NCBI GenBank assembly: GCA_963732805.1
Contig: CAVTAW010000001.1
Location: 406,283-470,282 of the forward strand
Direction of reading: 5' to 3'
Origin: an uncultured Chloroflexia bacterium
GTDB taxonomy: Bacteria; Chloroflexota; Limnocylindria; Limnocylindrales; CSP1-4
DNA: 64,000 nt
Made by a program: the position numbers and the translations under genes. Below are positions 3,136 to 53,036 of this stretch, in pieces (positions within the stretch are counted from its first letter, which is position 1; every line of letters starts with the position of its first letter). The notes under the pieces are model-generated. The model was not told the DNA's origin. It did not search any database and was given only the letters and a program-made list of their open reading frames with translations.

Positions 3136-4549
3136 CCCCGTGCCCGCCGGGAGGCGGACCCCGGCTGTGCTGGGCCTGGACCTCGGCACGACCGAGGCCA
3201 AGGCGGCGGTCGTCGGGCTCGACGGACACCTGGTGGGAGTCGGGCGCGGGTCGTACCCGCTGGACCTGGGTCCGGATGGACGCGCGGAGCAGTCGCCGGC
3301 CGACTGGTGGGCCGCGATCACCGCCGCCTTCCGATCCATCGACACCACCGGGGTGGAGGTGCTGGCGGTCTGCGGCGTGGGCCAGGGACCCACGCTGGCG
3401 GTCGTGGACGCGTCCGCCGCCCCGGTGCGGCCGGCGATCACCTGGCAGGACCGGCGGGCCGGTACCGGCGGGTTCGGGCTGCTGCCTAAGATGGCCTGGC
3501 TGGCGCGTGCCGACCCGAACGCCGTTGCCGCAGCGACCTGGCTGATGGCGAGCTGGGACGCCCTGGGACTGTGGCTGTCGGACCAGGCTGCGACGACGCT
3601 CCAGGGCCACGAGACCGCGTTGGACGCGGCGACGCTCGAGGCCGCGGGGATCGTGGCCGCCCGGGTGCCGTCCGCGCTGCCGTTCGGGACCCGCCTGGGC
3701 GGGCTCTCTGCCCGCGCGTCGGGTGCCCTCGGGCTGCCCGCCGGGCTGCCGGTCATCGCCGGCGTCAACGACGGCACCGCGAGCATGCTCGGTGCCGGGC
3801 TGCTGGCGCCCGGCGACGGCGTGGACACGGGTGGGACGTCCGGCGGGATCGGGATCTACGCCGCCCGGCGGATCGAGCTGCCGGGAGTGTTCCTCGCGCC
3901 GGCCCCGCTGCCCGGCCGTTGGGTTGTTGGTGGCGCGATGGCGGCCACCGGCGCGGCCGTGGACTGGCTGCGCCTGACGGTGGGGCGCGGTGCGTGGGCT
4001 CCCGAGACGCTGTTTGCGGAGGCGGCCTCGGTCGGTCCGGGCGCCGACGGCCTGGTGTTCCTGCCGTACCTTGCGGGCGAGCGGGCGCCGGTGTTCGACG
4101 ACTCGGCGCGCGGGGCGTTCGTTGGCCTCACGCTGGCGCACGGGCGTCCCCAGCTCGCCCGGGCGGTGCTCGAGGGTGCCGCCCTCGCGCTCCGTGACGT
4201 CGCACAGCCGATCATCGACGCCGGCGCGCCGCTGCTCGAGCTGCGCCTGGCGGGCCGCCCCTCTGCGGGCGACGCGTGGGCCCGGATCAAGGCCGACGTG
4301 CTCGGCGTGCCGGTCGCGATCCCGGTGGTGGGCGACACGGCGGTCCTGGGCGCCGCGATCCTCGCTGCCGCCGGCTCCGGCCTGGTGGCGGATCTGGAGG
4401 CGGGGGTCGCGGCGATGACCGCGGTGGCGCGGCTGCTGGAGCCCGACCCGGTGGCGCACGCTCGCTACGACCAGGTGTTCGACATCTATCGCGGGCTGTA
4501 TCCGGCGCTGGCCGGGTCCATGCACCGGCTGGGCGCGCCCGCCGGCTGA
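3128..4549 (+). CDS. FGGY-family carbohydrate kinase (xylulokinase-like)
   Basis: N-terminal 'VLGLDLGTTEAKAAVV' and overall FGGY architecture. Start overlaps the upstream stop by 8 nt, implying translational coupling. Confidence 0.8.
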   Translation: MPDPVPAGRRTPAVLGLDLGTTEAKAAVVGLDGHLVGVGRGSYPLDLGPDGRAEQSPADWWAAITAAFRSIDTTGVEVLAVCGVGQGPTLAVVDASAAPVRPAITWQDRRAGTGGFGLLPKMAWLARADPNAVAAATWLMASWDALGLWLSDQAATTLQGHETALDAATLEAAGIVAARVPSALPFGTRLGGLSARASGALGLPAGLPVIAGVNDGTASMLGAGLLAPGDGVDTGGTSGGIGIYAARRIELPGVFLAPAPLPGRWVVGGAMAATGAAVDWLRLTVGRGAWAPETLFAEAASVGPGADGLVFLPYLAGERAPVFDDSARGAFVGLTLAHGRPQLARAVLEGAALALRDVAQPIIDAGAPLLELRLAGRPSAGDAWARIKADVLGVPVAIPVVGDTAVLGAAILAAAGSGLVADLEAGVAAMTAVARLLEPDPVAHARYDQVFDIYRGLYPALAGSMHRLGAPAG

Positions 4550-10704: not shown

Positions 10705-11352
10705 TCAGGCGGCAATCGCCGTCGTCGGCGGTGCCACCAGCACGTAGGACGTCTGCCAGCTGCCTTCGTTGAGCATCTGGAGACGGATGTTGAGCCAGGC
10801 CATCGCCTCGAGCTCCCTGGCTGCAGCGAGCGGACCGACGCGCAGCGGCCGGAAGCCGATGGAGCCTGCCAGCTCCGCGAACACCGCCGCCGCGGCATCG
10901 TCGTCGGTCGCGTAGAGGGCATCGACCGTCGTGCCCAGCGCGGCCGGGTCTGCCTGGACACCGGCGAACAAGGTGTTGAAGGCCTTGACGACCGCGGCGC
11001 CCGGAATGAGCTCCGCGAGGCGCTCGGCGCCCGATGGCCCGCCGTCGGTGACCAGGCCCGAGTAGTCCGGCCTGAGCGGATTGGTGGCATCCACGACGAT
11101 CCTGCCAGTCGCGGCGTCGGCGACCTCCCGGGCGACGTCCTCCGCCGCCCCGAACGGGACCGCGAGGACGATGACGTCGGCACCCGCCGCCGCCGACGCG
11201 GGCGTCGGAGCCGCGTGCGCGCCCAGCTCGCCGGCGACCGCTCGGGTCCTGTCCGGGTCCTGCGCAGCGAACGTCACCTCGTGTCCGGCGCGGGCGAAGG
11301 ACCCTCCAAGGCCCTTGCCGACGTTCCCCGTCCCGATGATCGCGATCTTCAT
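10705..11352 (-). CDS. NADP oxidoreductase, coenzyme F420-dependent (Npd/FNO-like) family
   Basis: Rossmann N-terminus 'MKIAIIGTGNVGKGLG' and PF03807-like architecture. ATG at 11352 with an upstream GGAAAGGG. Confidence 0.75.
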   Translation of the reverse strand: MKIAIIGTGNVGKGLGGSFARAGHEVTFAAQDPDRTRAVAGELGAHAAPTPASAAAGADVIVLAVPFGAAEDVAREVADAATGRIVVDATNPLRPDYSGLVTDGGPSGAERLAELIPGAAVVKAFNTLFAGVQADPAALGTTVDALYATDDDAAAAVFAELAGSIGFRPLRVGPLAAARELEAMAWLNIRLQMLNEGSWQTSYVLVAPPTTAIAA

Positions 11353-11384
11353 TGGGTTCAACCCTTTCCGGTGGTCCACGGCAT

Positions 11385-11418
11385 GCGACTGCCGCTTGAC
11401 GTTTGCCATCAGCAAATC
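11385..11418 (+). promoter_or_regulatory. Sigma-70-like promoter (-35 TTGACG, 17-bp spacer, -10 TAGATT) overlapped by the palindrome TCAGCAA(A)TCTAGATTGCTGA; candidate operator in the divergent intergenic region
   Basis: Hexamers and spacing read directly from the sequence. Imperfect 21-bp palindrome centred on CTAG, ~55 nt upstream of the XRE-cupin gene start. Confidence 0.45.
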
Positions 11419-11470
11419 TAGATTGCTGACAGGATCACTCTGCCACGAATAGCACTGGGAGTCAACTGGG

Positions 11471-12046
11471 TTGTCTGTGGAACAACTTCAACCAACGCCG
11501 GCGTCGGTCAACGTCGGCAGGGAGATCCGCCGCTGGCGGCAGAGCCGGGGCCTGACGCTCGCCGGGGTGAGCGAGCGGAGCGGTCTCAACATCGGGTACC
11601 TGAGCCAGATCGAGAACGAGAAGGCCGTGCCGTCGCTCGACGCGCTGGCCACGATCGCGACCGCGCTGGACGTTCCTGCCGCGTGGCTGCTGCTCGACTC
11701 GTCGAGCCCGCCACGGGTGGTGCGCTCGTCGGAGCGGCCGCGCACCGACGGTCCGGGTGGCGTGCTGGTCACCGAGGTCGACGCGGGGACATCGCGAGAC
11801 GTGTGCATGCTCGAGGTGACCGCCCCGCCCGGCCACTCGACCGGGGTGCATGCTCACCACGGCGATGAGCATCACCTGGTCCTGGCCGGCCGCTGGCGGA
11901 TGACCCAGGGCGATCAGGTCGTCGAGCTCGGACCCGGCGACTATCTCGCCTGGGATCCGACGGTGCCCCACGACGTTGAGGTCGTCGGTGACGAGCCCGG
12001 TCGGATCCTGGTCGTCTATCCGCGCAAGGGCCGGCGCCCGGGCTGA
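11471..12046 (+). CDS. XRE-family HTH transcriptional regulator with C-terminal cupin domain
   Basis: 'VGREIRRWRQSRGLTLAGVSERSGLNIGYLSQIENEK' (HTH_3) followed by a cupin core 'GHSTGVHAHHGDEHHLVLAG...GDYLAWDPTVPH'. Confidence 0.8.
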   Translation: MSVEQLQPTPASVNVGREIRRWRQSRGLTLAGVSERSGLNIGYLSQIENEKAVPSLDALATIATALDVPAAWLLLDSSSPPRVVRSSERPRTDGPGGVLVTEVDAGTSRDVCMLEVTAPPGHSTGVHAHHGDEHHLVLAGRWRMTQGDQVVELGPGDYLAWDPTVPHDVEVVGDEPGRILVVYPRKGRRPG

Positions 12047-18595: not shown

Positions 18596-19396
18596 TCAGT
18601 CCCAGCGGAAGCGGCGCGCCGCGAGGACGGCGAGCGCGACGGCCCAGCCGGCCAGCAGGATCAGCGGCTCGGTGACGTCCCCGGTCGCGTTGCCCAGGCC
18701 GACCGCGAGCGCCTGGGTGAGGGCCGCCGCGGGCAGCACCTCGGCGACGGTCGCCACCACGCCGGGCAGCCGGTCGAGCGGCACGACGATGCCGCCCAGC
18801 ACCAGGAACACCAGGAACAGCAGGTTGGCCAGCGCGAGCGTCGCCTCGGCGCGCAGCGTGCCGGCCATCAGGAGCCCGAGGCCCGCGAACGCGACCGTGC
18901 CCAGCACGAGCGCCAGCAGGGTCAGCGGTGCGGACGCGGTGGGCCCCGCCGTCCAGGCGAGCGCCACGGTCGCGATCCCCACCAGCAGGATCAGCTGGAC
19001 GATCTCCACGACGATGACCGACGCGGTCTTGGCGGCCACCACGACGGACGACCCTGCCGGGCTGCCCCCGAGCCGCTTGATCACGCCGTACTGGCGTTCG
19101 AACCCGGTCGAGATCGCGAGCGACACCAGCGCGGCAGCGATCACCGCGAGGCTCACCGAGCCCGGCAGCAGACGGTCCACCGGACGATCCGTCGCCGAAC
19201 CGCCGGTCATGTCGAACGCGCTGAACACGAGCAGCACCCCGACGGGGATCACGAACGTGATCAGCAGCCCCTCGCCCCGCCGAAGCACGAGGCGGAACTC
19301 GTACGTGGCGAGGGCCAGGGCCATCTGGAGCCACGAGGCCGGCCGGGCCGGCACGCCGGCACCAGCGGGCAGGCGCCCGTCCCCGATGGCGGTCAT
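18596..19396 (-). CDS. ABC-2 type transporter permease
   Basis: Six-TM ABC-2 permease; ATG overlaps the ATPase stop (ATGA). Confidence 0.8.
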   Translation of the reverse strand: MTAIGDGRLPAGAGVPARPASWLQMALALATYEFRLVLRRGEGLLITFVIPVGVLLVFSAFDMTGGSATDRPVDRLLPGSVSLAVIAAALVSLAISTGFERQYGVIKRLGGSPAGSSVVVAAKTASVIVVEIVQLILLVGIATVALAWTAGPTASAPLTLLALVLGTVAFAGLGLLMAGTLRAEATLALANLLFLVFLVLGGIVVPLDRLPGVVATVAEVLPAAALTQALAVGLGNATGDVTEPLILLAGWAVALAVLAARRFRWD

Positions 19397-20406
19397 GCCG
19401 CCCCCTCTGCCTCGGCGGCGACGTCGCTGCCGACCAGCTCCAGGTAGCGTTCCTCGAGGCTTGCAGCGCCGAGACGGAGCTCGGTGAGCAGCAGCCCGTG
19501 CTCGGCGCACCAGTCGGCCAGCCCGGCGATCAGCCCGGGATCGGGAGCCGCCGCCAGGTCCACGATCTCGTAGGCCGCCCCGGCTCCCGCGACCGTGACC
19601 CGCGGTGATCCGCCGGACAGGCGACCGGCCATGCCGGCGAGGTCTGCCGCATCGCCGTCGTCGAGTGCCCGCGACAGCCGGAACCGGATCCGGGGAGCGC
19701 CGGCGCCGGTCAGCTCCGCCGGCGTGCCGAGCGCCACCAGGCGGCCCCGATCGAGCACCGCCACGCGGTCCGCGAGCCGCTCGACGTCACCCAGCTCGTG
19801 GGTCGTGAGCAGGATCGTCGTGCCGGCGGCCCGCAGTGCGGCGATCCGGTCGCGGGTCGCCTGCTTGGCGGCGGGGTCCATGCCGGCCGTCGGCTCGTCG
19901 AGCACCAGCAGCTCTGGCCGGCCGAGCAACGCGATCGCGAGCCCCAGGCGCTGGCGTTCGCCGCCGGACAGTCGCCGGTAGCGCGTGTCGGCCGCGCGCT
20001 CGAGGTCGACCGTCTCCAGCAGCCGGTCTGGATCCTCGGGGTCGCGATAGAACCGCGCGTAGAGGTGGATCGCCTCGCGCGGGGTGGTGCGGTTGTCGAT
20101 GCCGCCCTCCTGGAGCATCAGCCCGATGCGCGGTCGGAGCCGCGTGCCATCGTGGATCGGATCCAGGCCCAGCACCCGGACCGTGCCGCCGTCGACGCGT
20201 CGGTAGCCCTCCAGGATCTCGACGGTCGTCGTCTTGCCCGCGCCGTTGGGGCCCAGGAGCGAGAACAGCTCGCCCCGCCTGACGTCGAACGAGACGCCGG
20301 TCAGGATCTCCCGCCGGCCGTACGCCTTGCGGACGTCCACGGCCCGGACGGCGATCTCGCGGTCCGGGCCGGCCGGCTCGCCGGGTGTGGCCGAGGTGGG
20401 CGTCAT
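19393..20406 (-). CDS. ABC transporter ATP-binding protein (ABC-2/DrrA/NosF-like)
   Basis: Walker A 'GPNGAGKTT', signature 'LSGGERQRLGLAIAL', Walker B 'LVLDEPTAGMD'. ATG overlaps the stop of the upstream tlpA-like gene (ATGA). Confidence 0.85.
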   Translation of the reverse strand: MTPTSATPGEPAGPDREIAVRAVDVRKAYGRREILTGVSFDVRRGELFSLLGPNGAGKTTTVEILEGYRRVDGGTVRVLGLDPIHDGTRLRPRIGLMLQEGGIDNRTTPREAIHLYARFYRDPEDPDRLLETVDLERAADTRYRRLSGGERQRLGLAIALLGRPELLVLDEPTAGMDPAAKQATRDRIAALRAAGTTILLTTHELGDVERLADRVAVLDRGRLVALGTPAELTGAGAPRIRFRLSRALDDGDAADLAGMAGRLSGGSPRVTVAGAGAAYEIVDLAAAPDPGLIAGLADWCAEHGLLLTELRLGAASLEERYLELVGSDVAAEAEGAA

Positions 20407-20909
20407 GGGGCGATCTTCGCGTACTGCGTGTCGAAGTCCTGGGGTTTGACCTGGCCGATCTGCATGCCGCGCAGGATGCCCTCGCTGTCGATGAAGTAGG
20501 TCTGGGGCGGCGCCACGACGCGGTACGCCTCGGCGATCGAGTCGTCCGGGTCGGTGACCGTTGGCCAGGTGGCCCCGAACTCGTCGAGGAACTGGCGGGC
20601 GAGCTCCGCCTGGTCCTTGTACAGCACGCCCAGGATCACGAGCCCGTCGGCTGGTCCGTGCGTGGCCAGGCGATCCCGGAACAGCGGGAACTCGTCACGG
20701 CACGGCGTGCACCACGACGCCCAGAAGCTGACCACCACCGGGTGGCCTCGATACGCGGACAGGTCGACGGAGGTGCCGTCGAGCGCGATGCCGGTGATGG
20801 CCGGGGCGGGCTGGCCGGTCCGCGCTCCGCTGGAGCCGCCGCAGGCCGCGACGAGCAGCAGGATCAGCGCCAGGCCGGCGGCCGGGATTCGAAGGTCGGT
20901 CTTGTGGAT
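20403..20909 (-). CDS. TlpA/ResA-like thiol:disulfide oxidoreductase lipoprotein (thioredoxin fold); no canonical start codon found
   Basis: 'WASWCTPC' active site. The same frame upstream encodes a lipoprotein signal peptide '..HKTDLRIPAAGLALILLLVAACGGSSG', but no ATG/GTG/TTG lies between the upstream in-frame TGA and the lipobox. The only plausible initiator is ATC at 20909. Confidence 0.6.
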   Translation of the reverse strand: MHKTDLRIPAAGLALILLLVAACGGSSGARTGQPAPAITGIALDGTSVDLSAYRGHPVVVSFWASWCTPCRDEFPLFRDRLATHGPADGLVILGVLYKDQAELARQFLDEFGATWPTVTDPDDSIAEAYRVVAPPQTYFIDSEGILRGMQIGQVKPQDFDTQYAKIAP

Positions 20910-20919
20910 GGTGGTGTGC

Positions 20920-22047
20920 CTACTGCGCGGTGACGGTTCCCGTCATGTTCGGGTGAACCGAGCACACGAAGGTGTACTGGCCGGCGGGGAGTGCCGGCAC
21001 ATCGTAGACCACGACCTTCGGTCCCGTGATGATCTCGCCCTTGAACAGCTCCTTCCCCGACGCGTCCTTGATCGCCACGTTGTGGGGCGTCCCGGGGTCC
21101 CGGTTGTCGAACGCCATGGTGAACGGTGTGCCCGCCGGCACGGTGATCGAGCTCTCGAGGTAGGTGATGTTCTGGGCGCTGACGCTGACGTCGGCCGCGG
21201 GTAGGCTGGCCGCCGGGGTGGCACCGCCGTCCGCACCGCCGCCGGACGCGCCTCCACCGGCGGGAGCCCCGCTGGCCGTTGCCGAGCCGCCGCCCGAGTT
21301 GGGCAGGATCCCGGAGCTCAGCAGCAGGGCGCTCGCGATGATCACGGCCAGCACGGCGAACGTGGTCACGGGCCACGAGGGGGCACCACCCAGGTCCAGG
21401 TGGCCGGTGCGGTCCGAGGCCTCGACCGCCACGTACTCGCGTCGCGCGTCGCGCAGCCAGCCGAGCAGGGTGAGGACGAGCGCGATCGCCCCCAGGGCCA
21501 TCGCCCATCCACCGACCACCATGCCGGCCACGAGCAATGTCATCGACACCGCGACCAGGATCGGCCGGAACGACGGCGGCGGGATGTGGACCCCTTCGGG
21601 CGGTGTCCCCATCGGCGCCGGGAGCGCGCCCGGCGACAGGGCGGCGACGGCGCCGCCCGTGACCGACTCGGTCATCGGGATGTGGTCGTAGTCGCGCAGC
21701 GCCTCGCGACCCCAGTACAGCAGCGTGACGATCAGCGTCAGCACGCCGACCAGGAGCCATGGGCCGCGATTGACCAGGCCGAACGCGAGCATGAACACGC
21801 CGAACGCGCCGAGGATCGGCGCGAACGACGGGCCGGGCATGTGGGTGCCGGACGGCGCCACGGGGGGCAGGCGGCGCTTCCCTCGCCGCGTCGGGCCCGC
21901 TGTGGCGAACCGGTAGATGGTCCAGGTCAGGTACAGGAAGACGAGGACCGCGAGCAGGATCGGGATCAGGTCGATCAGCGCGCCCCAATCGGGGATGACC
22001 AGCTTCGAGCTGAGCTCGATGAAGCTGTTCCAGAGGTCCTCGATCAT
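20920..22047 (-). CDS. Polytopic membrane protein with C-terminal type-1 copper (cupredoxin) domain
   Basis: N-terminal region has three related TM-hairpin modules ('P.F.PIL.A....'). C-terminus 'GTPHNVAIKDASGKELFKGEI...YTFVCSVHPNMTGTVTAQ' carries H...C..H..M copper ligands. Confidence 0.7.
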   Translation of the reverse strand: MIEDLWNSFIELSSKLVIPDWGALIDLIPILLAVLVFLYLTWTIYRFATAGPTRRGKRRLPPVAPSGTHMPGPSFAPILGAFGVFMLAFGLVNRGPWLLVGVLTLIVTLLYWGREALRDYDHIPMTESVTGGAVAALSPGALPAPMGTPPEGVHIPPPSFRPILVAVSMTLLVAGMVVGGWAMALGAIALVLTLLGWLRDARREYVAVEASDRTGHLDLGGAPSWPVTTFAVLAVIIASALLLSSGILPNSGGGSATASGAPAGGGASGGGADGGATPAASLPAADVSVSAQNITYLESSITVPAGTPFTMAFDNRDPGTPHNVAIKDASGKELFKGEIITGPKVVVYDVPALPAGQYTFVCSVHPNMTGTVTAQ

Positions 22048-22057
22048 CTGCCGCCCG

Positions 22058-22243
22058 TCAGCTGTGGCGCAGCCCGGCGAACAGGACGTAGGCCATGATC
22101 GACATGGCCGCGCCCAGCGCGATCAGGAGCACGAACCCTGCGTAGTCGACCTTGGTCGAGTCCACCGCCGCGGAGAAGGCGAGGTAGAACGCAGCGATCC
22201 CGACGAACAGGAGGCCGACGAGCGCGGCGCGGCGGGGGTTCAT
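22058..22243 (-). CDS. Small two-TM protein, cytochrome c oxidase subunit IV-like
   Basis: 61 aa, entirely hydrophobic, lying between coxC and the cupredoxin membrane protein. Assignment is by position only. Confidence 0.45.
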   Translation of the reverse strand: MNPRRAALVGLLFVGIAAFYLAFSAAVDSTKVDYAGFVLLIALGAAMSIMAYVLFAGLRHS

Positions 22244-22265
22244 GACGGTCGTCCCTTCTCCGGCG

Positions 22266-22940
22266 CTACAGCAGGTACAGGATCGAGAACAGCAGGATCC
22301 AGACCACGTCCACGAAGTGCCAGTACAGCGACATCGCCTCGACCATGTCGTGGTGCCGGGCCGAGAACTGGCCCGCCATGCCGCGGTACACCACGACCGC
22401 CAGCATCAGCACCCCGCCGAACACGTGGGCGCCATGGAAGCCGGTGAGCGTGAAGTACGTCGTGCCGAAGGTCGTGGACCCCATGGTCAGTCCCTCGTGC
22501 ATCAGGACGCTGTAGTCGAAGGCCTGGATCAGCAGGAACGTCACGCCCAGGACCAGCGTCGCCGAGATGTTGCGCACAAAGCCACGGTGATCGTCACGCC
22601 GGATCGCCCAGACGCCCATCTGGCAGGTGAAGGACGAGATCACGAGGATGATCGTCGCGGGCAGGATCAGGTTGAGCGCGCCGGACTCGGTGGTCAGCGT
22701 GAACGGGTTGAGCAGGTGCGCGAACTCCGAGGGCGGCCACACGTGCTGCGACGCGCCGTTGATCACCTCGGTGTAGCCGGCGCGGATGCTGAAGTACGCC
22801 GCGAACAGGCCGGCGAAGAACATCACCTCGGAGGTGATGAACAGGAGCATCCCCAGGACCGGGTTGCCGATCCCGCCGCTGCCGTGAGCCTCCACCGCGG
22901 CGTGGTCCCGGGGGGCGAGGGTCGTCGTGTCAGCCGTCAT
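22266..22940 (-). CDS. ctaE: Cytochrome c oxidase subunit III
   Basis: 'GMLLFITSEVMFFAGLFAAYF', 'YWHFVDVVWILLF'. Confidence 0.9.
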   Translation of the reverse strand: MTADTTTLAPRDHAAVEAHGSGGIGNPVLGMLLFITSEVMFFAGLFAAYFSIRAGYTEVINGASQHVWPPSEFAHLLNPFTLTTESGALNLILPATIILVISSFTCQMGVWAIRRDDHRGFVRNISATLVLGVTFLLIQAFDYSVLMHEGLTMGSTTFGTTYFTLTGFHGAHVFGGVLMLAVVVYRGMAGQFSARHHDMVEAMSLYWHFVDVVWILLFSILYLL

Positions 22941-22953
22941 CGTCCCGCCTCCC

Positions 22954-24576
<1,623 letters not shown>

Positions 24577-24591
24577 TCCCTGCGGGCTCCC

Positions 24592-25719
24592 TTACTGCAC
24601 CGTGATCGTGCCGGTCATGTTCGGATGGACCGTGCAGGCGAACGTGTAGGTGCCCGCCGCGAGCGCGGGCACGCTGTAGTTCGTCTCGGCCGGTCCGGTG
24701 ATGATGTCGCCCTTGAACACCTGCTTGCCACCGGCGTCGGTGATCGCCACGTCATGCGGCACGCTCGGGTCGTCGTTCTTGAAGTGGATCGTGAATGGCG
24801 TGTCGGCGGGTGCCTGGAGCGTCGACGTCGAGAAGGCGATGTTCTGCGCGCCGAGCTCCAGCACCGGGCCCTGGGCTGCCCCGGACGGTGCGGGCGTGGG
24901 CGTCGCGCTCGCCTTGGCCACCTGGTCCGCGAACCAGGTATCGAAGGTCGCCTTGTCCACCGCGTGGACGTCGAACACCATCGAGCCGTGGAACGGGCCA
25001 CACAGCTCGGCGCACTGTCCCCGGTACGTCCCGGCCTCGTCGACCGTGAAGTCGAAGGTGTTGACCTTGCCCGGGACCGCGTCCCGCTTGAACAGGAACT
25101 TGGGGACGTAGAACGCGTGGATCACGTCCTCGGCCCGCAGGTCCACCTGGATCGGCTCGCCGACCGGCAGGAACAGCCCGCCGTCGTCACCCACGGGCAG
25201 CGACTGCGTGAACAGCACCGGCGCGTCCGCGGCTGGTCCGTCGAGGTACTGGAACTGCCACTGGAACCGGGCGGCCACGGCGCGGACGTGGATGTCGGAC
25301 ACGGACTTCGCCTCGACCGTGTTGAGCGTCTGCCAGGACATCAGGAACAGGAAGGCCACGATCGCCGTCGGGATGACGGTCCAGATGATCTCGACCACGT
25401 TGTTGCCGTGGATCTGCGGCGGCAGCTCGTCGTCGCCCGGCTTGCGCCGGTAGCGGAACGCCGAGTACACGATCAGCCCTTCGACCAGGAAGAAGATCAC
25501 GACCGCGATGTAGAACACGATGTCGTACAGGGACTTCGTGCTGTGGGACCGGTCCGTGACCGGCGTTGCCCCGCCGACCGGGAAGAAGCTGTCCCAGGCG
25601 CGCTGGGGCGTGATCCCGGCGGCGAGCAGCACGATCACCGCAACGGCGGCGACCACGACGATGATCAGGCCTGCGAGCAGCGGGCCGGACCCGGTCCGTG
25701 ACCGGGAGGGCATCGACAT
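24592..25719 (-). CDS. ctaC: Cytochrome c oxidase subunit II fused to a C-terminal type-1 copper cupredoxin domain
   Basis: CuA region 'HAFYVPKF...CAELCGPFHGSM'. An extra ~115-aa domain follows, ending 'VPHDVAI...GTYTFACTVHPNMTGTITVQ' (H, C, H, M ligands). Start at ATG 25719 (AGGAA upstream); the upstream 85 aa of the track ORF rejected. Confidence 0.85.
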   Translation of the reverse strand: MSMPSRSRTGSGPLLAGLIIVVVAAVAVIVLLAAGITPQRAWDSFFPVGGATPVTDRSHSTKSLYDIVFYIAVVIFFLVEGLIVYSAFRYRRKPGDDELPPQIHGNNVVEIIWTVIPTAIVAFLFLMSWQTLNTVEAKSVSDIHVRAVAARFQWQFQYLDGPAADAPVLFTQSLPVGDDGGLFLPVGEPIQVDLRAEDVIHAFYVPKFLFKRDAVPGKVNTFDFTVDEAGTYRGQCAELCGPFHGSMVFDVHAVDKATFDTWFADQVAKASATPTPAPSGAAQGPVLELGAQNIAFSTSTLQAPADTPFTIHFKNDDPSVPHDVAITDAGGKQVFKGDIITGPAETNYSVPALAAGTYTFACTVHPNMTGTITVQ

Positions 25720-25882
25720 TGGGTTCCTCGACGGTTGTCGACCCGGCCGCATCGACGGCCGCATCAGCACTGAGGTGTCGCCGTCCGGGGGACACGCACC
25801 GCCTCGCGGGGGGCGCCGGACCCGCGCATCATAGCGAACAATCCGTGTCGCGGGGGCCGAACGGTCCATCTGGTGGTGCCAA

Positions 25883-26962
25883 ATGGCCCGTCGGGCTCCG
25901 TCTGCCGAAACGGGTGACAATGCGGAGGTGAACATCGCGCTCCGCCGCGCTGCCACGGGCGGGATCGCCGGCACGCTGCTGCTCGCCCTCGCGCCGACCG
26001 CCCTGGCTCACGGTGGGTCGGTGCCGCCCGAACCCGACGCGCTCACCTTCCTGCTCGGCTGGAGCTTCGACCCCCTGGTCTGGCTGCCGGCCATCGTCGC
26101 CCTGCTGGTGTGGCGGGCGGGGGTGCTCAAGGTCAACCGCGAGCACCCGTCCCACCCGGTGGCGCCCCGCCGGACCTGGTACTGGGTGGCCGGCGTGTTC
26201 ACGGTCGTGTTCGCGCTCGACTCCGGCTTCGCCCAGTACGACACCACGCTGTTCTCGCTGCACATGGTCCAGCATCTGCTGTTGACCCTGGTCGCGCCGC
26301 CGCTCCTGCTCCTGGCCGGCCCGATCACGCTGCTGCTCCAGGCGTCGTCGGCGGACACGCGCCGCCGCTGGATCCTGCCCGTCCTCCACGCCCGGATCGT
26401 CCGCGCGATCTCGTTCCCGGTCATCGCCTGGCTGCTGTTCGCCGCGGTGATGTGGGGCAGCCACTTCTCCCCGCTGTTCGACCTCGCCCTCGAGAACGAG
26501 TGGGTGCATCGCCTGGAGCACGCGCTGTACCTGGTGTCCGCGCTGCTGTTCTGGTGGCCGGCCGTGGGGCCGGATCCCTCGCCCTGGAAGCTCAAGCCGG
26601 CGGCACGGATCATGTACACGGGCCTCCAGATGCCCCAGAACACGTTCCTCGCCGTGGCCGTGTACATGGCCTCGGCGCCGCTGTATCACCACTACGCCAC
26701 CACGATCCGGACCTGGGGGCCGACGCCGCTCGAGGACCAGCAGATGGCCGGCGGGATCATGTGGATCGGCGGCGACTTCGTGTTCCTGGCCGTGCTGCTG
26801 CTGCTGGTCTGGCTGTGGATGCAGGACGACGAGCGGCGGGCGGTGGGCGAGGATCGGCGCCTGGAGGCCGAGCGCGCGGCGATCAGGGAGCGCGAGGTGG
26901 TCCTGGCCGCGCGCCGCGCGGCGGAGGATCAGGCCTCCGGCGGGATCGGCGCCTCCAGGTAG
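25883..26962 (+). CDS. ctaG: Cytochrome oxidase assembly factor, CtaG (caa3-type)/CopD-like membrane protein
   Basis: Divergent from the cox operon. N-terminal signal-like segment then 7 TM helices with conserved His ('HMVQHLLLTL', 'VHRLEHALYL'). Alternative GTG start at 25928. Confidence 0.65.
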   Translation: MARRAPSAETGDNAEVNIALRRAATGGIAGTLLLALAPTALAHGGSVPPEPDALTFLLGWSFDPLVWLPAIVALLVWRAGVLKVNREHPSHPVAPRRTWYWVAGVFTVVFALDSGFAQYDTTLFSLHMVQHLLLTLVAPPLLLLAGPITLLLQASSADTRRRWILPVLHARIVRAISFPVIAWLLFAAVMWGSHFSPLFDLALENEWVHRLEHALYLVSALLFWWPAVGPDPSPWKLKPAARIMYTGLQMPQNTFLAVAVYMASAPLYHHYATTIRTWGPTPLEDQQMAGGIMWIGGDFVFLAVLLLLVWLWMQDDERRAVGEDRRLEAERAAIREREVVLAARRAAEDQASGGIGASR

Positions 26963-28390: not shown

Positions 28391-28564
28391 ATGGCGATCG
28401 AGAAGGACCCCGTCTGCGGCATGGACGTCGACACCGAGACGTCGCAGCTGTCCTGGGAGTACGAGGGCAAGACGTACTGGTTCTGCGGCAAGGGCTGCAT
28501 GCTCGAGTTCAAGGACGATCCCCGGAAGTACCTTGACCCGGCGTACGAGCCGCAAGGGATGTGA
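28391..28564 (+). CDS. YHS/TRASH-domain small metal (copper)-binding protein, 57 aa (absent from the supplied ORF track)
   Basis: Translated by hand: MAIEKDPVCGMDVDTETSQLSWEYEGKTYWFCGKGCMLEFKDDPRKYLDPAYEPQGM. 'DPVCGM...YEGKTYWFC..GC' is the YHS signature; AGGAG ~11 nt upstream. Confidence 0.6.
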   Translation: MAIEKDPVCGMDVDTETSQLSWEYEGKTYWFCGKGCMLEFKDDPRKYLDPAYEPQGM

Positions 28565-28901: not shown

Positions 28902-29690
28902 TCAGGTCCGGCCCGCGGTCTCCCCGGTGTCGTTGGCCAGCCGCTGCGCCGCATAGACCGGGATCGCCGACAGGGCGATCAGCACGACCGCGACCACGTT
29001 CACCAGCGGGCGCTGGTTGGGCAACCGGAGGTTGGCCAGGATCCAGATGGGAAGCGTCTCCTGCGTGCCCGCCGTGAAGGTCGTCACGATCACCTCGTCG
29101 AACGACAGGGCGAAGGCGAGCATGCCACCCGCCAGCAGCGCCGTCCCGATGAGCGGCAGGGTCACATGGCGGAAGGTCTGTCCCGTGTCCGCGCCGAGAT
29201 CCATCGATGCCTCCTCCACCGATCGGGACGAGCGTCTCAGGCGGGCGACCACGTTGTTGTAGACGGTCACCACGCAGAAGGTCGCGTGGCCCACGATGAT
29301 CGTGAACATGCTGAACGGGACCCCGAACGTGTTGAACGTTGCGTTGAGGGCCATGCCGGTCACGATGCCGGGCAGCGCGATCGGCAGCAGCAGCACGAAC
29401 GAGACGACATCGCGGCCGAAGAACCGGAACCGGTGGACCGCGAAGGCCGCGAGGCTGCCGAGCAGGAGCGCGATCACCGTCGCGCCGACCGCCGTCTGGA
29501 GCGACAGCACCAGCGCGGCCCGGATCTCCTCGTTGGCGAATGCGTCGCCATACCAGTGGGTCGTGAACGACTGGATCGGCCAGGACTGCCCCCGGTCCGC
29601 ATTGAACGAGTACAGGACGATCGTGAAGATCGGCAGGTACAGGAACACGAGCACGCCCGCGGTCGCGATCCCGATCAGGCGACGGCCCAT
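28902..29690 (-). CDS. potC: Spermidine/putrescine ABC transporter permease PotC-like
   Basis: EAA loop 'EEASMDLGADTGQTFRHVTLPL'; six TM helices. Confidence 0.85.
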   Translation of the reverse strand: MGRRLIGIATAGVLVFLYLPIFTIVLYSFNADRGQSWPIQSFTTHWYGDAFANEEIRAALVLSLQTAVGATVIALLLGSLAAFAVHRFRFFGRDVVSFVLLLPIALPGIVTGMALNATFNTFGVPFSMFTIIVGHATFCVVTVYNNVVARLRRSSRSVEEASMDLGADTGQTFRHVTLPLIGTALLAGGMLAFALSFDEVIVTTFTAGTQETLPIWILANLRLPNQRPLVNVVAVVLIALSAIPVYAAQRLANDTGETAGRT

Positions 29691-29696
29691 TGCGGC

Positions 29697-30602
29697 CTAC
29701 AGCGCCTCGAACGCGCCGAGGCGGCGCGCGATCAGCAGATAGACGGCCATCACCAGCACCGGCACGGTCGCAAAGGCCGCGGCGAACGGCACGTTCCCGG
29801 CCACGCCCTGGCTGTCGTACACGACGTTGCCGATGAACTGGCTCTTGGACACGAGCCCGGGCGTGATGTAGTCGCCCAGGGTGAGCGAGAAGGTGAAGAT
29901 GGAGCCCGCCACCACCGCCGGGAAGGCGAGCGGCAGGATGACCCGGCGGAACGTCGTGGGCGGCCGGGCCCCAAGGTCGCCGGAGGCCTCGAACATCGAG
30001 GACGGGATCCGTTCCAGGCCCGCGTAGATGGGCAGGATCATGTACGGCAGCCAGATGTAGGTGAACACGATCACCATCGCGATGTCGCTCGGGTAGAGCG
30101 CGACACCGGGGATCCCCAGCTGCTGCAGGGTCCATTCCAGCGGTCCGCCCTGGGCGAGGATCACCCGCCACGCGTAGACCCGGACCAGGTAGCTGGACCA
30201 CAGCGGAAGCAGGACCAGCATGAACAGGATGGCGCGCGACCGGCGGCCCGCGTAGCGCGCCATGTACCACGCGATCGGGAACGCGAGCAGGGCGTCGAAC
30301 ACCGTGACCAGCGCCGCGACCCCGATCGTGCGCAGCGTGATCACCCGATACACGGGGTCCCGGATCAGCTGCTCGAAGTTGCGCAGCGTGAAGTCGTGCT
30401 TGATCGCGGACGTCAGCGGGTCGAGATACCAGAACGCGGTCACGAACAGGATCGCAAGCGACCCGAGGTAGACCACGCCGAACCAGCCGGTCGGCGGGGC
30501 GAGCAGCAGCAGGAGCTGCAGCGAACGATGCCGGTAGACGAACGCGAACAGGCGCCGCCGCAGGCTCTGCGGCGGCGTCGTCGGGAGCGCGCCGGTGGTC
30601 AT
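29697..30602 (-). CDS. potB: Spermidine/putrescine ABC transporter permease PotB-like
   Basis: 'FEASGDLGARPPTTFRRVILPLAFP'; six TM helices. Confidence 0.85.
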   Translation of the reverse strand: MTTGALPTTPPQSLRRRLFAFVYRHRSLQLLLLLAPPTGWFGVVYLGSLAILFVTAFWYLDPLTSAIKHDFTLRNFEQLIRDPVYRVITLRTIGVAALVTVFDALLAFPIAWYMARYAGRRSRAILFMLVLLPLWSSYLVRVYAWRVILAQGGPLEWTLQQLGIPGVALYPSDIAMVIVFTYIWLPYMILPIYAGLERIPSSMFEASGDLGARPPTTFRRVILPLAFPAVVAGSIFTFSLTLGDYITPGLVSKSQFIGNVVYDSQGVAGNVPFAAAFATVPVLVMAVYLLIARRLGAFEAL

Positions 30603-30660
30603 CGTCGCATCCGACCCGGGGACGCCCGGCAGGCGGTCGTCCCCGGGTCCGGCTTGTGGA

Positions 30661-31980
30661 TCAGCCCTTGATCTCGGTCCACTTCTGGGTCCAGACCGAG
30701 TAGTCCACGCAGGACTGGCCGCGGTCGTCGCCGCAGTCGGGGAGCGGGGTCTTCCAGAACGCGATGCTGTTGTAGAAGGCCGGGTCGTTGACGTTGTACG
30801 CGGTGCAGAACCCGGGCAGCGCGTACGAGCCGTAGCCCGCGTCCAGGTACTTGCACGCCTTGGGGTTGGCGGGCGCTTCGCCGAAGTACTCGGCGACCTG
30901 GGTCTGGACCTCGGGCGTGAGCATCCAGGTCATCCACTTGAGCATGCAGTTGGGATGCTGGGCGTTGGACGACATCATCCAGGTGTCGGCCCACCCGGTC
31001 ATGCCCTCGGTGGGGACCACCTGGGCGACGGGGACGTCCTCACCCTTGAGGGTGTTGTACTGGTACGGCCAGGTCGTCCCGACGACCGTGGTGCCGCTCT
31101 TGAAGTTGTCGATCTCGTCCGAGAACGCGGCCCAGTACTTGCCGACCAATGGCTGCTGCTGCTTGAGCAGATCCACCGCGGCATTGAGCTGATCCTGCGT
31201 CAGCTCGTACGGGTCGGTGATGCCCAGGTCGGGATTGTGGGCCTTAAGGTACAGCGCCGCGTCGGCGATGTAGATCGGGCTGTCGTAGTCCGTGATCTTG
31301 CCCGCATACGGCTGGGCCTTGGCGGCGTCGAACACCACGTCCCAGCTGGTCGGGGCCGGGGTGACCATGTCGGTCCGGTACAGCAGCGTGTTGCCGCCCC
31401 AGCCATGAGGCGTGCCGTAGTGCTTGCCGTCCACCACGTAGTGCGGTGCGTTCTGCAGGAACGGGGCAACGTCGGCGAAGCCCGGGATCGTCGCTGGGTC
31501 GATCGCCGCGACATCGCCGTTGGCGATCAGGCGCAGCGTCGCGTCACCGGACGCGCTGACACCATCGTAGGTCGAGCCGCCGCCCTGGCGGAGCAGCGTG
31601 ACCATCTCGTCCGACGTGTTGCCGACCTTGGTCGAGACCTTGCAGCCGGTCTCGTCCTCGAACGGTGTCACCCAGTCGTACTCGGGCACATTGGAGCCGT
31701 CCTCGGCGTACCCGCCCCAGATGATCAGGTTGAGGGCACCCTCGCCCTGGCCGCCGACCGTGCTCAGGTCGACCGCCGGCTTCAGGGGTGTGATCGTGCC
31801 GTAGTCGCTCGGGATCAGCGACGCCGCGACCGACGGGGCCACTGATTCGGCGGGAGCCGAGCCCGTGGGCGAGGCAGGCACCGTGGGCGCCACTGACGGT
31901 GCCGGGGTGGTCGTGCTGCCCGAGCACGCGCCCGCGACGAGCGCCGCCGCCGCCGCCAGGCTGAGGACCTGCTTGCGCAT
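30661..31980 (-). CDS. potD: Polyamine ABC transporter substrate-binding lipoprotein (PotD/PotF-like)
   Basis: Lipobox 'LVAGACSGS'. Large extracytoplasmic binding-protein fold with PotD-like aromatic-rich core. Confidence 0.8.
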   Translation of the reverse strand: MRKQVLSLAAAAALVAGACSGSTTTPAPSVAPTVPASPTGSAPAESVAPSVAASLIPSDYGTITPLKPAVDLSTVGGQGEGALNLIIWGGYAEDGSNVPEYDWVTPFEDETGCKVSTKVGNTSDEMVTLLRQGGGSTYDGVSASGDATLRLIANGDVAAIDPATIPGFADVAPFLQNAPHYVVDGKHYGTPHGWGGNTLLYRTDMVTPAPTSWDVVFDAAKAQPYAGKITDYDSPIYIADAALYLKAHNPDLGITDPYELTQDQLNAAVDLLKQQQPLVGKYWAAFSDEIDNFKSGTTVVGTTWPYQYNTLKGEDVPVAQVVPTEGMTGWADTWMMSSNAQHPNCMLKWMTWMLTPEVQTQVAEYFGEAPANPKACKYLDAGYGSYALPGFCTAYNVNDPAFYNSIAFWKTPLPDCGDDRGQSCVDYSVWTQKWTEIKG

Positions 31981-32016
31981 CCTCCTGTCTCCTCCTCTGG
32001 TTGGATCGTGCCGGGC

Positions 32017-33101
32017 CTAGGCCCCGGCGATCTCGCGATGGTGCTGTCGCTTCCAGATCAGGCGGACAGCGCGCCCCTGCTGCGCGAGCGCCTCGTTGGA
32101 GGTCGTCGCGAGGTTCTGCTGGGTGACCACGAGCTCCTCGCCCGTGTCGAGCGCGACGTGGTAGCGCGTGTCCGGACCCAGGTACACGACGCTCCGGATT
32201 CGGCCGGTTGCCGAGTACTCGTCGGGCTGGGCGACCGCGCCGGGATCGTCCATGCGGATCTTCTCCGGCCTTACCGTGAACAGCCCGGAGCGACCCGTGA
32301 TGGCGACGGCGGCGTCGCCGCCGATCAGGTTCGACGTGCCGACGAAGCCGGCGACGAAGGTCGTGGCAGGTTCCTCGTAGACGGACGCCGGCGCCCCGAC
32401 CTGCTCGATACGGCCGCGGTTGAACACCGCGATCCGGTCGCTCATCGTGAGCGCCTCTTCCTGGTCGTGGGTGACGTAGATGAACGTGATGCCCACCTCG
32501 TGCTGGATCTGGTGGAGCTCGAGCTGCATCTCCTGGCGGAGCTTGAGATCGAGCGCCCCGAGCGGCTCGTCCAGGAGCAGCACCCGTGGCCGGTTGATGA
32601 GCGCCCGGGCGAGCGCGACCCGCTGGCGCTGGCCGCCGGACAGCTGGCCGGGCTTGCGGCGCTCGTAGCCCTCGAGCCGGACCATCGCCAGCGCCTCGCC
32701 GACGCGGCGTTCGCGTTCGGACCTCGGTACCTTGCGCACCAGCAGGCCGTAGCCGACGTTCTCGCCCACGGTCATGTGCGGGAACAGGGCATAGTCCTGG
32801 AACACCGTGTTGACGTCGCGCTCGAACGGGGCGAGGTGGGTGACGTCCTGGCCGTGCAGCAGGATGCGACCCTCCGTCGGCAGCTCGAAGCCGGCGATCA
32901 TCCGGAGCGTGGTGGTCTTGCCAGAGCCGGACGGCCCGAGCATCGAGAAGAACTCGCCGTCGGCGATCTCGAGATCGATCCCGGCCACCGCGACCACGTC
33001 ACCGAAGCGCTTTCGGATGCCCTCGAGGCGCACCGCGGAGCCGGCGTCACCGCTGCGGTCGCGGGTCGCCGCGGCGACCGGGTCCACGGGGGCGGCAGTC
33101 A
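32017..33101 (-). CDS. potA: Polyamine ABC transporter ATP-binding protein PotA-like
   Basis: Walker A 'GPSGSGKTT', signature '[15 protein letters not shown]', Walker B '[11 protein letters not shown]', C-terminal TOBE-like domain. Start GTG 33101 is tentative. Confidence 0.85.
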
Positions 33102-33266
33102 CTCGGAATCGGGCTCCTGGTGGTGACGGACGGACCGTCGGCACGCGGACACCCTTGGGTGCGCCCGCTCCTCCGGCCGTCGGGTGGACGCACGCTATTC
33201 GCCGCCGCATCGCGGTGTCAAGCACGATCCGCCACGTGGTCTCCGGAAGTCCAGCATCATGGCGCC

Positions 33267-33848
33267 GTGCACGCCGCGCCCTGCCCTGCCGACCGTCGGC
33301 GCATCCCCGTCGCCCTCCTGGGCCTGGTTGGTGTGGCGCTGCTGCTGACTGCCTGCGATGCCGGGCCTGATCACACCCCGCCGATCACGCCCGGCACGGC
33401 GTCGACGCCGCGCGAGGTCAACATCGTTGCCCGGGACTACGGCTACGCCCCGTCGGTCGTCGATCTGGTCCCGGGCGAGACCGTGGTCCTCCACGTCATC
33501 AACGGGGGGCTCGAGACCCACGAGGCCGTGGTCGGCACCCTCGAGGACCAGCTGGCGTGGGAGAGCGCCGAGGCCGCCACCGTCGGCCTCCCGCCCGGGC
33601 CGACGCCGGTGATCCCGGATCCGCCCGGTTTCGAGGGCGCACGGACGGTGGTCGGATCCGGGCAGCGGATGGACATCACGTGGACCGTGCCGCTCGACGC
33701 CGCGGCCGCCGCGAATGGCTGGTTCGTGGGCTGCCACATCCCGGGTCACTGGGCTAAAGGCATGGTCGTGCCGGTCCGGCTGGTCGGGCCGGATGGCCGG
33801 CCGCTCGGCACCGTCCCGCCGCTTCCCGGTCCCTCGACCGCCCACTGA
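33267..33848 (+). CDS. Cupredoxin (plastocyanin/azurin-like blue copper) lipoprotein
   Basis: GTG start. Signal peptide plus lipobox 'ALLLTAC'. '[15 protein letters not shown]' and '[15 protein letters not shown]' provide H, C, H, M ligands. Confidence 0.7.
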
Positions 33849-46568: not shown

Positions 46569-46711
46569 CGGCTCGTGAGACGGGTGTCCGACGGCGGGGT
46601 CGGCACGCCGGAGGTATCATCCCCCGATCGGTCCAATGCGGGTGATCGGCCCACGGCCGGGCCGACGCCAGAGCCCATCATGTCCAACCGTCACGCGCGA
46701 GCCCCCCGCTC

Positions 46712-49228: not shown

Positions 49229-49417
49229 CCTGCCTCCCTCGCGGTTGCCGAGGCTCCGCTGCGGCCCCGCCCGTTGTGCCCCGGTGTGCCCAGGGCCCAC
49301 GCTGCCGCGATGGCAATCGTCCTGGGCGCAGGGACTGGCGCGAAGTGTACGGCCGCCGACCGCTAGGATTCGGGCCTCGTCGCGTGGGCCGCGGCGACCG
49401 GCAGGTGGAGGCCAGCG

Positions 49418-51015: not shown

Positions 51016-51238
51016 TCAGCGCTCGCCGTGCGGGTTCTCGCCCGGACCGCGCCGGGTGAACTCGCCCTGCGTCTTCGGGCCGCCCGTGTACAGGCCGGTG
51101 CGGGTGTCCGGCTCGTCGCGCTTGAGCTGATGACCTTCGACGTCGAGCTCGCTCTCATCGGGAACGGCGTCGCCGCCGGTGCCGGGGAAGCCCCGCGTGA
51201 AGATGCCGTCCGTGCCTGGCTCGTCGCGCCTGGGTGCC
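51016..51238 (-). CDS. Small hydrophilic repeat protein (74 aa)
   Basis: ATG with GGAGA 6 nt upstream. Two ~30-aa internal repeats ('RRDEPGTDGIFTRGFPGTGG' / 'KRDEPDTRTGLYTGGPKTQG'). Confidence 0.45.
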
Positions 51239-52941: not shown

Positions 52942-53036
52942 CGATCTCTCCCCGGTCGAGCCCGTGGACGCGAGCCGAGGGTACCCGTTTGGGCGGGATC
53001 GCCGGGGCCGGGGCAGGGCACAATCGATCCGCCACC

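Follow-up and report, generated by a model that had tools for sequence, protein, structure and literature searches.

The stretch of DNA analysed here, hereafter the window, comprises 64,000 nucleotides of contig CAVTAW010000001.1 (assembly GCA_963732805.1) from an uncultured Chloroflexota bacterium of the Limnocylindria. It contains a single minus-strand operon, at 18596-25719, which encodes a haem-copper oxidase and in which coxB, coxI and coxIII are followed by the genes of a 61-residue protein, a 375-residue membrane protein, a TlpA-like lipoprotein, an ATP-binding cassette (ABC) ATPase and an ABC-2 permease. Two of the products, CoxB (subunit II) and the 375-residue protein, end in a domain predicted to bind type-1 (blue) copper, and these two domains are the subject of this report. 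As the G+C content of the window, about 72%, fills raw lists of open reading frames (ORFs) with spurious frames, genes were picked by their third-position GC (GC3) and were then confirmed with Pfam and NCBIfam. Nine ORFs fell outside the Pfam scan: the GC3-called ORF 60021-61019 and eight additional gene-like frames (2933-4546, 10708-11487, 43090-44481, 46646-47386, 51019-51390, 52932-53978, 60799-61764 and 61792-63999). A preliminary description of this DNA, made from the sequence alone, had expected COX2 plus cupredoxin, Cupredoxin_1 and AhpC-TSA/TlpA-type domains in CoxB, the 375-residue protein and the lipoprotein, and these were the domains returned by the searches.

In CoxB, three predicted transmembrane (TM) helices precede a CuA domain, which is joined by an Ala/Pro-rich linker (about 20 residues) to a C-terminal type-1 copper cupredoxin. 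The CuA ligands H201, C236, C240, H244 and M247 are intact, as is E238, and all of them are invariant among the homologues aligned. Subunit II of the Thermus caa3 oxidase (2yev_B) was the best match of CoxB in the PDB by sequence (2.3e-38) and also its best fold match. The alignment of the two proteins spans a shared 'AKAS..P' segment and reaches no further than residue 276 in CoxB and 235 in 2yev_B. Past this point, a cytochrome c domain is found in Thermus and the cupredoxin in CoxB, so that the latter stands exactly where the preliminary description had placed it. The additional domain is covered by no solved subunit II (at most 287 aligned columns and a query TM-score of at most 0.50 in the fold search). 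Since the C-terminal domain of CoxB is a Cupredoxin_1 domain without CxxCH, a motif that is absent from the whole of CoxB, the enzyme is not, judging from its sequence, a caa3 oxidase in the strict sense.

Both additional domains are amicyanin-like type-1 copper cupredoxins for which copper binding is predicted. The ligands H322, C362, H365 and M368 occur at identical numbering in CoxB and in the 375-residue protein, and the copper loop reads C-x-V-H-P-N-M in both domains (C-T-V-H-P-N-M in CoxB). When the CoxB domain was aligned by phmmer with amicyanin 1id2, the four ligands were all matched (PHDV/CTVHPNM here, PHNV/CTPHPFM in amicyanin); the family profile of the 375-residue protein matched amicyanin at 5e-10. 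The type-1 ligands are invariant in 48 CoxB homologues, in 51 homologues of the 375-residue protein and in every intact related locus. The earlier claim of cupredoxins with a complete H/C/H/M set is therefore borne out by the Pfam matches, the amicyanin alignment and the invariance of the ligands. The two cupredoxins are about 55% identical to each other. Both have the Greek-key beta-sandwich fold of type-1 cupredoxins, and in the AlphaFold2 (AF2) models their per-residue confidence (pLDDT) was mostly 90-98 (range 86-98), with a value of 78.5 for the whole CoxB model. Their predicted location is the outer side of the membrane, the position of the C-terminus of the 375-residue protein being read from its sequence by the positive-inside rule. 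Their linkers are of low complexity and variable in length, the median length being 20 residues in CoxB (A/P/G) and 40 in the 375-residue family (A/G/P/S).

The 375-residue protein begins with a TM helix (TM1), continues with two tandem modules and a further helix (TM6), and ends with a Gly/Ala/Ser linker of about 40 residues and the cupredoxin. In agreement with this layout, the AF2 model showed six TM helices, a disordered linker at residues 250-279 and then the cupredoxin. Each module consists of H-x-P-x-P-S-x-x-P followed by a helical hairpin ending in W-x-R-D/E-x-x-R-E/D-Y, and the two modules are 45% identical over 56 residues (E 1e-14). A profile of the TM part matched residues 9-66 of subunit III from R. 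sphaeroides (E 0.0013), residues 8-64 of mouse COX3 and, from residue 6, a second mammalian COX3 chain (E 0.054 and 0.063). The H-x-x-x-P-S-x-W-P motif with a hairpin ending in W-x-R-D/E, characteristic of the N-terminal module of subunit III, is thus present, with modest statistical support. The regions matched are the first two helices of canonical subunit III, exactly those which are absent from the adjoining short CoxIII. Pfam further returned PF12270 (CtaF) at 31.9 bits against a cutoff of 26.9, over positions 80-124 of the 132 in the model, and about 60% of the homologues among the matches listed carry a precomputed PF12270 match. NCBIfam gave no match to the 375-residue protein, a profile search of the PDB gave none to CtaF, and fold searches with the model returned matches for the cupredoxin and none for the TM part. 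Because of the CtaF match and of the COX3-like hairpins that the neighbouring CoxIII lacks, this protein most likely belongs to the oxidase as an integral accessory subunit, as far as its sequence allows it to be placed. Database labels of its homologues include 'plastocyanin', 'cupredoxin domain-containing protein' and 'cytochrome c oxidase subunit 4'; oxidase subunit IV-like protein with cupredoxin domain would be a better annotation than 'plastocyanin', and it is called the subunit IV-like protein below.

The 61-residue protein is a second candidate for an extra oxidase subunit. It was located by tblastn at the same position in 16 related loci, and the 15 sequences aligned, that of the window included, share the invariant residues R4, G10, F13, Y20 and G36 and the motif S-x-M-x-x-V-L. 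No match was found in Pfam, NCBIfam or the PDB for this two-helix protein.

The type of the oxidase was read from CoxI. Its motifs YSHPAVY (251), HHMF (302) and AHLHYV (385) cover the HPxVY, HH and HxH positions that provide the metal ligands and the cross-link, and APDMAFPR and PTGVK supply the Asp of the D-channel and the Lys of the K-channel. Where A1 enzymes read GHPEVY, CoxI reads YSHPAVY, with Ala in place of the gating Glu, which we take to be the A2 signature of the published A1/A2 classification. By these motifs, the enzyme is an A-family haem-copper oxygen reductase of the A2 subtype. The solved chains nearest to CoxI are those of CtaD in the actinobacterial bcc-aa3 supercomplex (5e-205), with Thermus caa3 next (8e-156); for CoxB this order is reversed, with Thermus caa3 first. 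CoxIII lacks the first two helices of the canonical subunit, its Pfam COX3 match corresponding to the C-terminal part, and its best NCBIfam match was aa3_CtaE_Actin, below cutoff. Neither ctaA nor ctaB was seen in the 64-kb window.

A second aa3-type oxidase was observed on a 4-kb contig of a Candidatus Limnocylindrales metagenome-assembled genome (MAG) (L025:132-3225). Its subunit I is of the A1 type (GHPEVY; 58% identity); the C-terminus of its subunit II is a tail rich in Pro, Ser and Thr, with neither cupredoxin nor CxxCH. Going by this contig, the lineage may have two A-family oxidases. An ORF upstream of this second oxidase was considered as the C-terminus of a QcrB-like cytochrome b and was dropped, as Pfam gave it no support.

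The fusion was found to be widespread. CoxB had 2606 significant homologues among the candidates scored, and the COX2 plus cupredoxin architecture was present in all 120 of the 120 matches listed, among which the named homologues came from Candidatus Limnocylindrales MAGs. The subunit IV-like protein had 1303 homologues, one of them 100% identical. A scan of one genome per GTDB species yielded 38 loci (designated by L-numbers), about 23 of which are Limnocylindria/Chloroflexota MAGs with the fusion or near relatives of it. With the window proteins as tblastn queries, the gene order (ctaG divergent; coxB with its cupredoxin through to the ABC-2 permease) proved syntenic in about 20 Limnocylindria species genomes, and it holds down to about 45% CoxB identity. 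In L014, L018, L019 and L023, tblastn matches to single genes were frame-split, CoxI for example lying in four pieces in L023. Since such splits look like indel errors of MAG assembly, the apparent pseudogenes in these four loci are not to be trusted.

Natural variants bear on the relation between the two copies. CoxB lacks the cupredoxin in L012, L013 and L020, and all three loci keep the subunit IV copy; in L013, CoxB terminates '...AAAAPTPAPSASANP', within a remnant of the old linker. Conversely, L021 keeps the CoxB copy, and its subunit IV is a protein of 115 residues with one hairpin module and no cupredoxin. None of the operons of this type examined was without both cupredoxins. The domains of the CoxB type and those of the subunit IV type fell into separate clades of a neighbour-joining tree, L016 and L017 excepted, and an old duplication with retention of both copies is therefore indicated. 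In L016 and L017, both copies share an 'HPIPxM' loop insertion and are more alike within each genome (66% and 55% identity) than they are to their orthologues, which suggests, from the sequences, gene conversion or a second duplication.

The features of the locus are collected in Table 1.

Table 1. Genes and domains of the oxidase operon and of its vicinity (window coordinates).
Feature	Coordinates	Strand	Evidence and remarks
coxB (subunit II, 375 aa)	24592..25719	-	Pfam COX2_TM, COX2, Cupredoxin_1, Copper-bind; TIGR02866 CoxB above cutoff
Cupredoxin domain of CoxB, aa 285-375	24595..24867	-	H322, C362, H365, M368; amicyanin 1id2 alignment
coxI, catalytic subunit I, 540 aa	22954..24576	-	Pfam COX1, E 1e-166; A2-type motif YSHPAVY
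coxIII, short subunit III, 224 aa	22266..22940	-	Pfam COX3, model positions 78-255 of 258
61-aa two-TM protein, candidate small oxidase subunit	22058..22243	-	Conserved in operon
Subunit IV-like membrane protein, 375 aa	20920..22047	-	Partial Cyt_c_ox_IV (PF12270) and C-terminal Cupredoxin_1
Cupredoxin domain of the subunit IV-like protein, aa 285-375	20923..21195	-	H322, C362, H365, M368
TlpA/ResA/DsbE-like thioredoxin lipoprotein	20403..~20909	-	Pfam AhpC-TSA, Redoxin; start codon uncertain
ABC ATPase, DrrA-like	19393..20406	-	Pfam ABC_tran; TIGR01188 drrA best match, below cutoff
ABC-2 permease, DrrB-like	18596..19396	-	Pfam ABC2_membrane; TIGR00025 DrrB family
ctaG, Bacillus/caa3-type copper insertion factor	25883..26962	+	Pfam Caa3_CtaG, E 8e-74; divergent from coxB
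YHS-domain protein, 57 aa, putative metal-binding	28391..28564	+	Pfam YHS, E 8e-18

Several details of the layout differ from those first given. The operon had been drawn at 20403-25882, coordinates that leave out the two ABC genes which belong to it. Position 25882, the end given there, is the edge of ctaG; CoxB starts at 25719, preceded by a GAGGAA motif, and the stretch between the two positions is 5' untranslated or intergenic. ATGA overlaps were described along the operon: they do occur between the TlpA-like gene and the ABC ATPase and between the latter and the permease, but the other junctions are gaps of 10-22 nt. The divergent ctaG was found as described, and this position is kept in the related loci that are long enough to show it.

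In the TlpA-like lipoprotein, the lipobox reads LVAAC and the active site WCTPC. The NCBIfam models ResA, DsbE and TlpA all scored below their curated cutoffs, so that membership is given at the level of the family only. In Bradyrhizobium, TlpA offers an analogy for the keeping of copper-ligand cysteines in the reduced state; with this analogy and the fixed place of the gene in the cox operon, it is plausible that the protein serves the same purpose in CuA assembly. The ABC pair is a generic DrrAB-type exporter, syntenic and translationally coupled in the oxidase operon. Of the CuA-maturation kit proposed in the preliminary description, the TlpA part is thus tenable, but the exporter is tied to the oxidase by conserved position and coupling only, and nothing was found to connect exporters of this kind with the maturation of CuA. 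A role of the TlpA-like protein and the exporter in cytochrome c maturation (Ccm) was rejected, the permease being of the DrrB type (TIGR00025) with no other transporter family matched.

The start of the TlpA-like gene is unusual. No ATG, GTG or TTG occurs upstream of its signal peptide (window 20880-20942, minus strand), and a canonical start is likewise absent at the junction with the cupredoxin-bearing subunit IV gene in L002, L004, L007-L013, L018, L020 and L023. Near-cognate codons take the place of a canonical start: ACG in about ten loci, and in further loci ATC, ATA or ATT; ATG is present in L019, just upstream of the signal peptide, and as the start in the divergent L021. These sequences suggest a non-canonical, probably weak, initiation or a coupling to the upstream gene.

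Other copper-related genes had been counted as part of the module because of their proximity. The YHS protein is indeed present and was found in several syntenic loci, but two unrelated genes and a distance of 1.4 kb set it apart from ctaG, and its link with the oxidase is weak. The 'cupredoxin lipoprotein' (33120-33848, plus strand) is weakly cupredoxin/CopI-like and lies 7 kb off, beyond a polyamine ABC transporter, which does not favour its inclusion. It carries a C-H-x3-H-x4-M motif, keeps its place beside the spermidine/putrescine-type ABC transporter (28902-33225) in many related genomes, and is probably a copper-resistance protein and not a part of the oxidase. CopA (54071-56767, plus strand), said to be nearby, is 28 kb away. 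The C-terminal 100 residues or so of this P1B-ATPase (~56465-56764), after the last TM helix, are Cupredoxin_1-like (E 2.7e-06) and contain no Cys and no recognisable copper-ligand pattern, as in a ligand-less fold. Unrelated to the oxidase, a major facilitator superfamily transporter with a C-terminal cyclic-nucleotide-binding domain, an unusual pairing, is encoded at 47399-49498 (minus strand). Overall, the core idea of a blue-copper oxidase is retained from the preliminary description, which went too far in counting the exporter towards a CuA kit and in the neighbouring genes that it listed.

From these data, we consider it probable that the operon encodes the main A2-type aa3 oxidase of this bacterium, built as a copper analogue of caa3, in which tethered blue-copper domains are the electron entry to CuA. 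This reading is drawn from the conserved type-1 sites, the outward topology, the flexible tethers, the caa3-equivalent point of insertion and the presence of a second copy on a probable subunit. Both cupredoxins would take single electrons from an upstream quinol-oxidising complex or from its carrier, and the electrons would pass from type-1 Cu to CuA, then to haem a, haem a3-CuB and O2. During assembly, the TlpA/ResA-like lipoprotein would hold the copper-ligand cysteines reduced and CtaG would insert copper. Chloroflexota are single-membrane cells, and a tethered carrier would fit a cell that has no outer membrane to hold soluble carriers.

Some points weigh against this proposal. Copper binding, redox potential and electron transfer are all deduced from sequence. 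The COX3 and CtaF matches of the subunit IV-like protein are weak (E 0.0013-0.06; 45 of 132 positions), so that its place in the complex is a putative one. Finally, the Pfam-scanned ORFs of the window contain no complex III genes.

The question of the donor was approached in the window and in related proteins. Among the window ORFs scanned with Pfam, there was no Rieske protein, no cytochrome b and none of the genes of alternative complex III (ACIII; ActABCDEF). As stated in the preliminary description, there is no c-type cytochrome, none being encoded by the gene-like frames of the window, and the sole CxxCH in a high-GC3 frame belongs to a CBS-domain protein. An exhaustive search with the CoxB cupredoxin returned 3056 cluster representatives from a 50%-identity library. 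COX2 fusions made up 6 of the best 150 relatives, and 28 of these 150 also matched the SoxE model. The closest relatives (P0241-P0253 and others) are mostly proteins of 300-650 residues with two to four tandem cupredoxins, one of which is named from an Actinomycetota MAG; others carry TPR/CcmH-like repeats behind a membrane anchor (P0317, P0341), PPC domains or multicopper-oxidase domains.

In one relative, P0318, a membrane-anchored monohaem cytochrome c (CARCH) is followed at the C-terminus by a cupredoxin 58% identical to the CoxB domain. Its family gave 2471 significant matches; the three that are named with an organism at NCBI comprise two Chloroflexi/Chloroflexota MAG proteins and one Acidimicrobiales MAG protein. 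On two contigs (L040:5968-11101 and L041:5961-11089), the cytochrome c-cupredoxin gene is the last of a Rieske/b6 operon, in the order 611-residue flavo-iron-sulfur protein, cytochrome b6-like protein, subunit IV-like protein of that complex, Rieske protein and cytochrome c-cupredoxin. The first of these is a GltD-like flavoprotein with 4Fe-4S domains, and its gene overlaps the start of that of cytochrome b. On a third contig (L039), a Rieske gene precedes the cytochrome c-cupredoxin gene. In a neighbour-joining tree without branch support values, the P0318-type domains formed one clade nested among the Limnocylindria CoxB-type domains.

This Rieske/b6 complex is, on sequence grounds, a candidate donor for the oxidase, and it may occur in cox-bearing genomes. 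Tetranucleotide correlation of L040/L041 with the Limnocylindria loci was non-discriminating (r about 0.75, against 0.80 for an Actinomycetes locus), and the flanking genes common to both groups were not orthologous (Pro_dh, 38% identical). ENA ERZ accessions are sample-level assemblies, one ERZ holding two different coxB contigs, and did not link the P0318 operon to cox-bearing genomes. The earlier hint that the chain lacks cytochrome c is given up: since there are Rieske/b6 operons in which a c-type cytochrome carries a cupredoxin of this very subfamily, the chain need not do without cytochrome c. A copper wire can tentatively be envisaged, in which the cupredoxin of a P0318-type complex III would hand electrons to the oxidase-tethered cupredoxin or cupredoxins, possibly within a supercomplex. 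The path would run from the Rieske protein through haem c to type-1 Cu, to a second type-1 Cu and to CuA with no diffusible carrier. If true, this would be a third kind of link between complexes III and IV, beside soluble cytochrome c/plastocyanin and the actinobacterial di-haem QcrC.

The cupredoxins might instead be the entry for a periplasmic or lithotrophic dehydrogenase and not for complex III, the oxidase being a dedicated branch. Models exist in amicyanin with methylamine dehydrogenase, and in rusticyanin and AcoP in iron oxidation. This appears unlikely, as none of the approximately 20 syntenic loci has a dehydrogenase linked to the operon, as the near-universal presence of the operon in the lineage suggests housekeeping respiration, and as the fusion of the same subfamily to the cytochrome c subunit of a Rieske/b6 operon points to a III-IV link.

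In another arrangement, the two cupredoxins would act in series, electrons passing obligatorily from the donor to the subunit IV copy, to the CoxB copy and to CuA, as through the two haems of QcrC. The proximity of CoxI to actinobacterial CtaD, whose enzymes use a built-in two-centre wire, speaks for it, and so do the retention of both copies as separate orthologous lineages in most species and the different lengths of the linkers (about 20 and about 40 residues). However, the operons of L012, L013 and L020, without the CoxB copy, and of L021, without the subunit IV copy, are otherwise intact, and in L016 and L017 each copy is more similar to the other copy of its genome than to its orthologues, which interchangeable domains would be expected to show. 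An obligatory relay is thus quite improbable. Because some of the species examined have lost one copy or the other and none has lost both, the two are more likely parallel or redundant entry points than the steps of such a relay.

A role in the handling of copper, either as Cu(I) delivery for CuA/CuB assembly in the manner of PCuAC/CupA or as surface buffering, seems very unlikely to us. The H/C/H/M set is invariant and includes the short C-x2-H-x2-M loop of amicyanin; a complete type-1 set is a signature of electron transfer, unlike known chaperone sites. Moreover, both domains are permanently built into structural subunits, and that of CoxB stands exactly where caa3 enzymes have their cytochrome c; in the CopA domain, by contrast, all the ligands have been lost. 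That the domains are decorative or decaying fusions without present function is hardly credible. Some species have indeed lost the CoxB or the subunit IV copy, but across hundreds of sequences there is no variation in any of the ligands or in many of the framework residues, and none of the operons of this type that were examined lacks a copy altogether.

Neither a bacterial fusion of subunit II with a cupredoxin nor a Limnocylindria oxidase was found described in the literature searched, the coverage of which was incomplete, so that an earlier description is possible; the preliminary description had not recognised the arrangement either. In two recent genomic accounts of Limnocylindria, cupredoxin and plastocyanin are not mentioned; in the one, cytochrome d oxidase is the only oxidase named, and in the other none of six respiratory terms occurs. 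Thousands of database sequences of these proteins are labelled just 'cytochrome c oxidase subunit II' or 'plastocyanin'. If the proposed function is correct, the operon would represent a natural experiment in which copper took the place of iron in the last respiratory steps, and a compact system for the study of intramolecular electron transfer from type-1 Cu to CuA, for which the natural single-copy variants already hint at a redundancy of the two copies. If the same genomes prove to hold the Rieske/b6-cupredoxin partner, complexes III and IV would here be wired together in a new manner.

Several known systems can be compared with this oxidase. In Sulfolobus SoxM, a membrane-bound sulfocyanin (SoxE) links the Rieske/b module and the aa3-type oxidase as a separate, unfused subunit; that system is archaeal and its operon content is different. 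In the haloarchaeal halocyanin systems, a blue-copper protein is likewise the donor of a haem-copper oxidase and is once fused to a small non-catalytic subunit, which recalls the subunit IV-like protein: the halocyanin/CbaD fusion OE_4073R of Halobacterium salinarum has been recorded and is uncharacterised (PMC8305020). The likening to archaeal blue-copper systems made in the preliminary description is therefore apt. The haloarchaeal enzymes are nevertheless archaeal ba3 (B-family) oxidases with a different small subunit, CbaD, and with no reported subunit II fusion, and the oxidase studied here is not a member of the archaeal group.

Within the bacteria, AcoP, the partner of the aa3 oxidase of Acidithiobacillus ferrooxidans, differs in being a separate, unfused protein with a green copper site that acts in an acidophilic iron-oxidation chain. 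The auracyanins, which occur with ACIII in Chloroflexus and Roseiflexus of the same phylum, are membrane-anchored blue-copper carriers of respiration and photosynthesis and were among the top fold matches of the cupredoxin. They differ in being free-standing anchored proteins with a longer copper loop, the domain being nearer to amicyanin by sequence, and in their association with ACIII, of which the window gave no sign in the scan. The bcc-aa3 supercomplex of M. smegmatis (6ADQ/6HWH) shares with the present enzyme a CtaD-close CoxI, CtaE/CtaC-like best NCBIfam models, the partial CtaF match and the principle of a built-in carrier. Its wire consists, however, of two haem c domains on complex III, whereas the copper domains described here are on complex IV; in addition, the NCBIfam scores lie below the actinobacterial cutoffs and subunit I is of the A2 type by motif.

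The closest parallel in architecture is the caa3 oxidase of Thermus thermophilus (PDB 2YEV) and Rhodothermus marinus, in which the donor domain is fused at the same position, C-terminally to the TM and CuA parts through an Ala/Pro linker, and in which subunit I also carries the YS motif (A2) instead of the gating Glu. The present enzyme differs in that its predicted donor is a type-1 copper cupredoxin and not a CxxCH cytochrome c, in that subunits I and III are unfused, and in that a second donor domain is found on a separate membrane subunit. The bacterial case known to us of a carrier fused to a haem-copper oxidase is the caa3 type with its cytochrome c domain. In the present enzyme, the carrier of subunit II would be a blue-copper domain, with a second one on an accessory subunit, in an arrangement fixed across a class of abundant uncultured soil and freshwater Chloroflexota.

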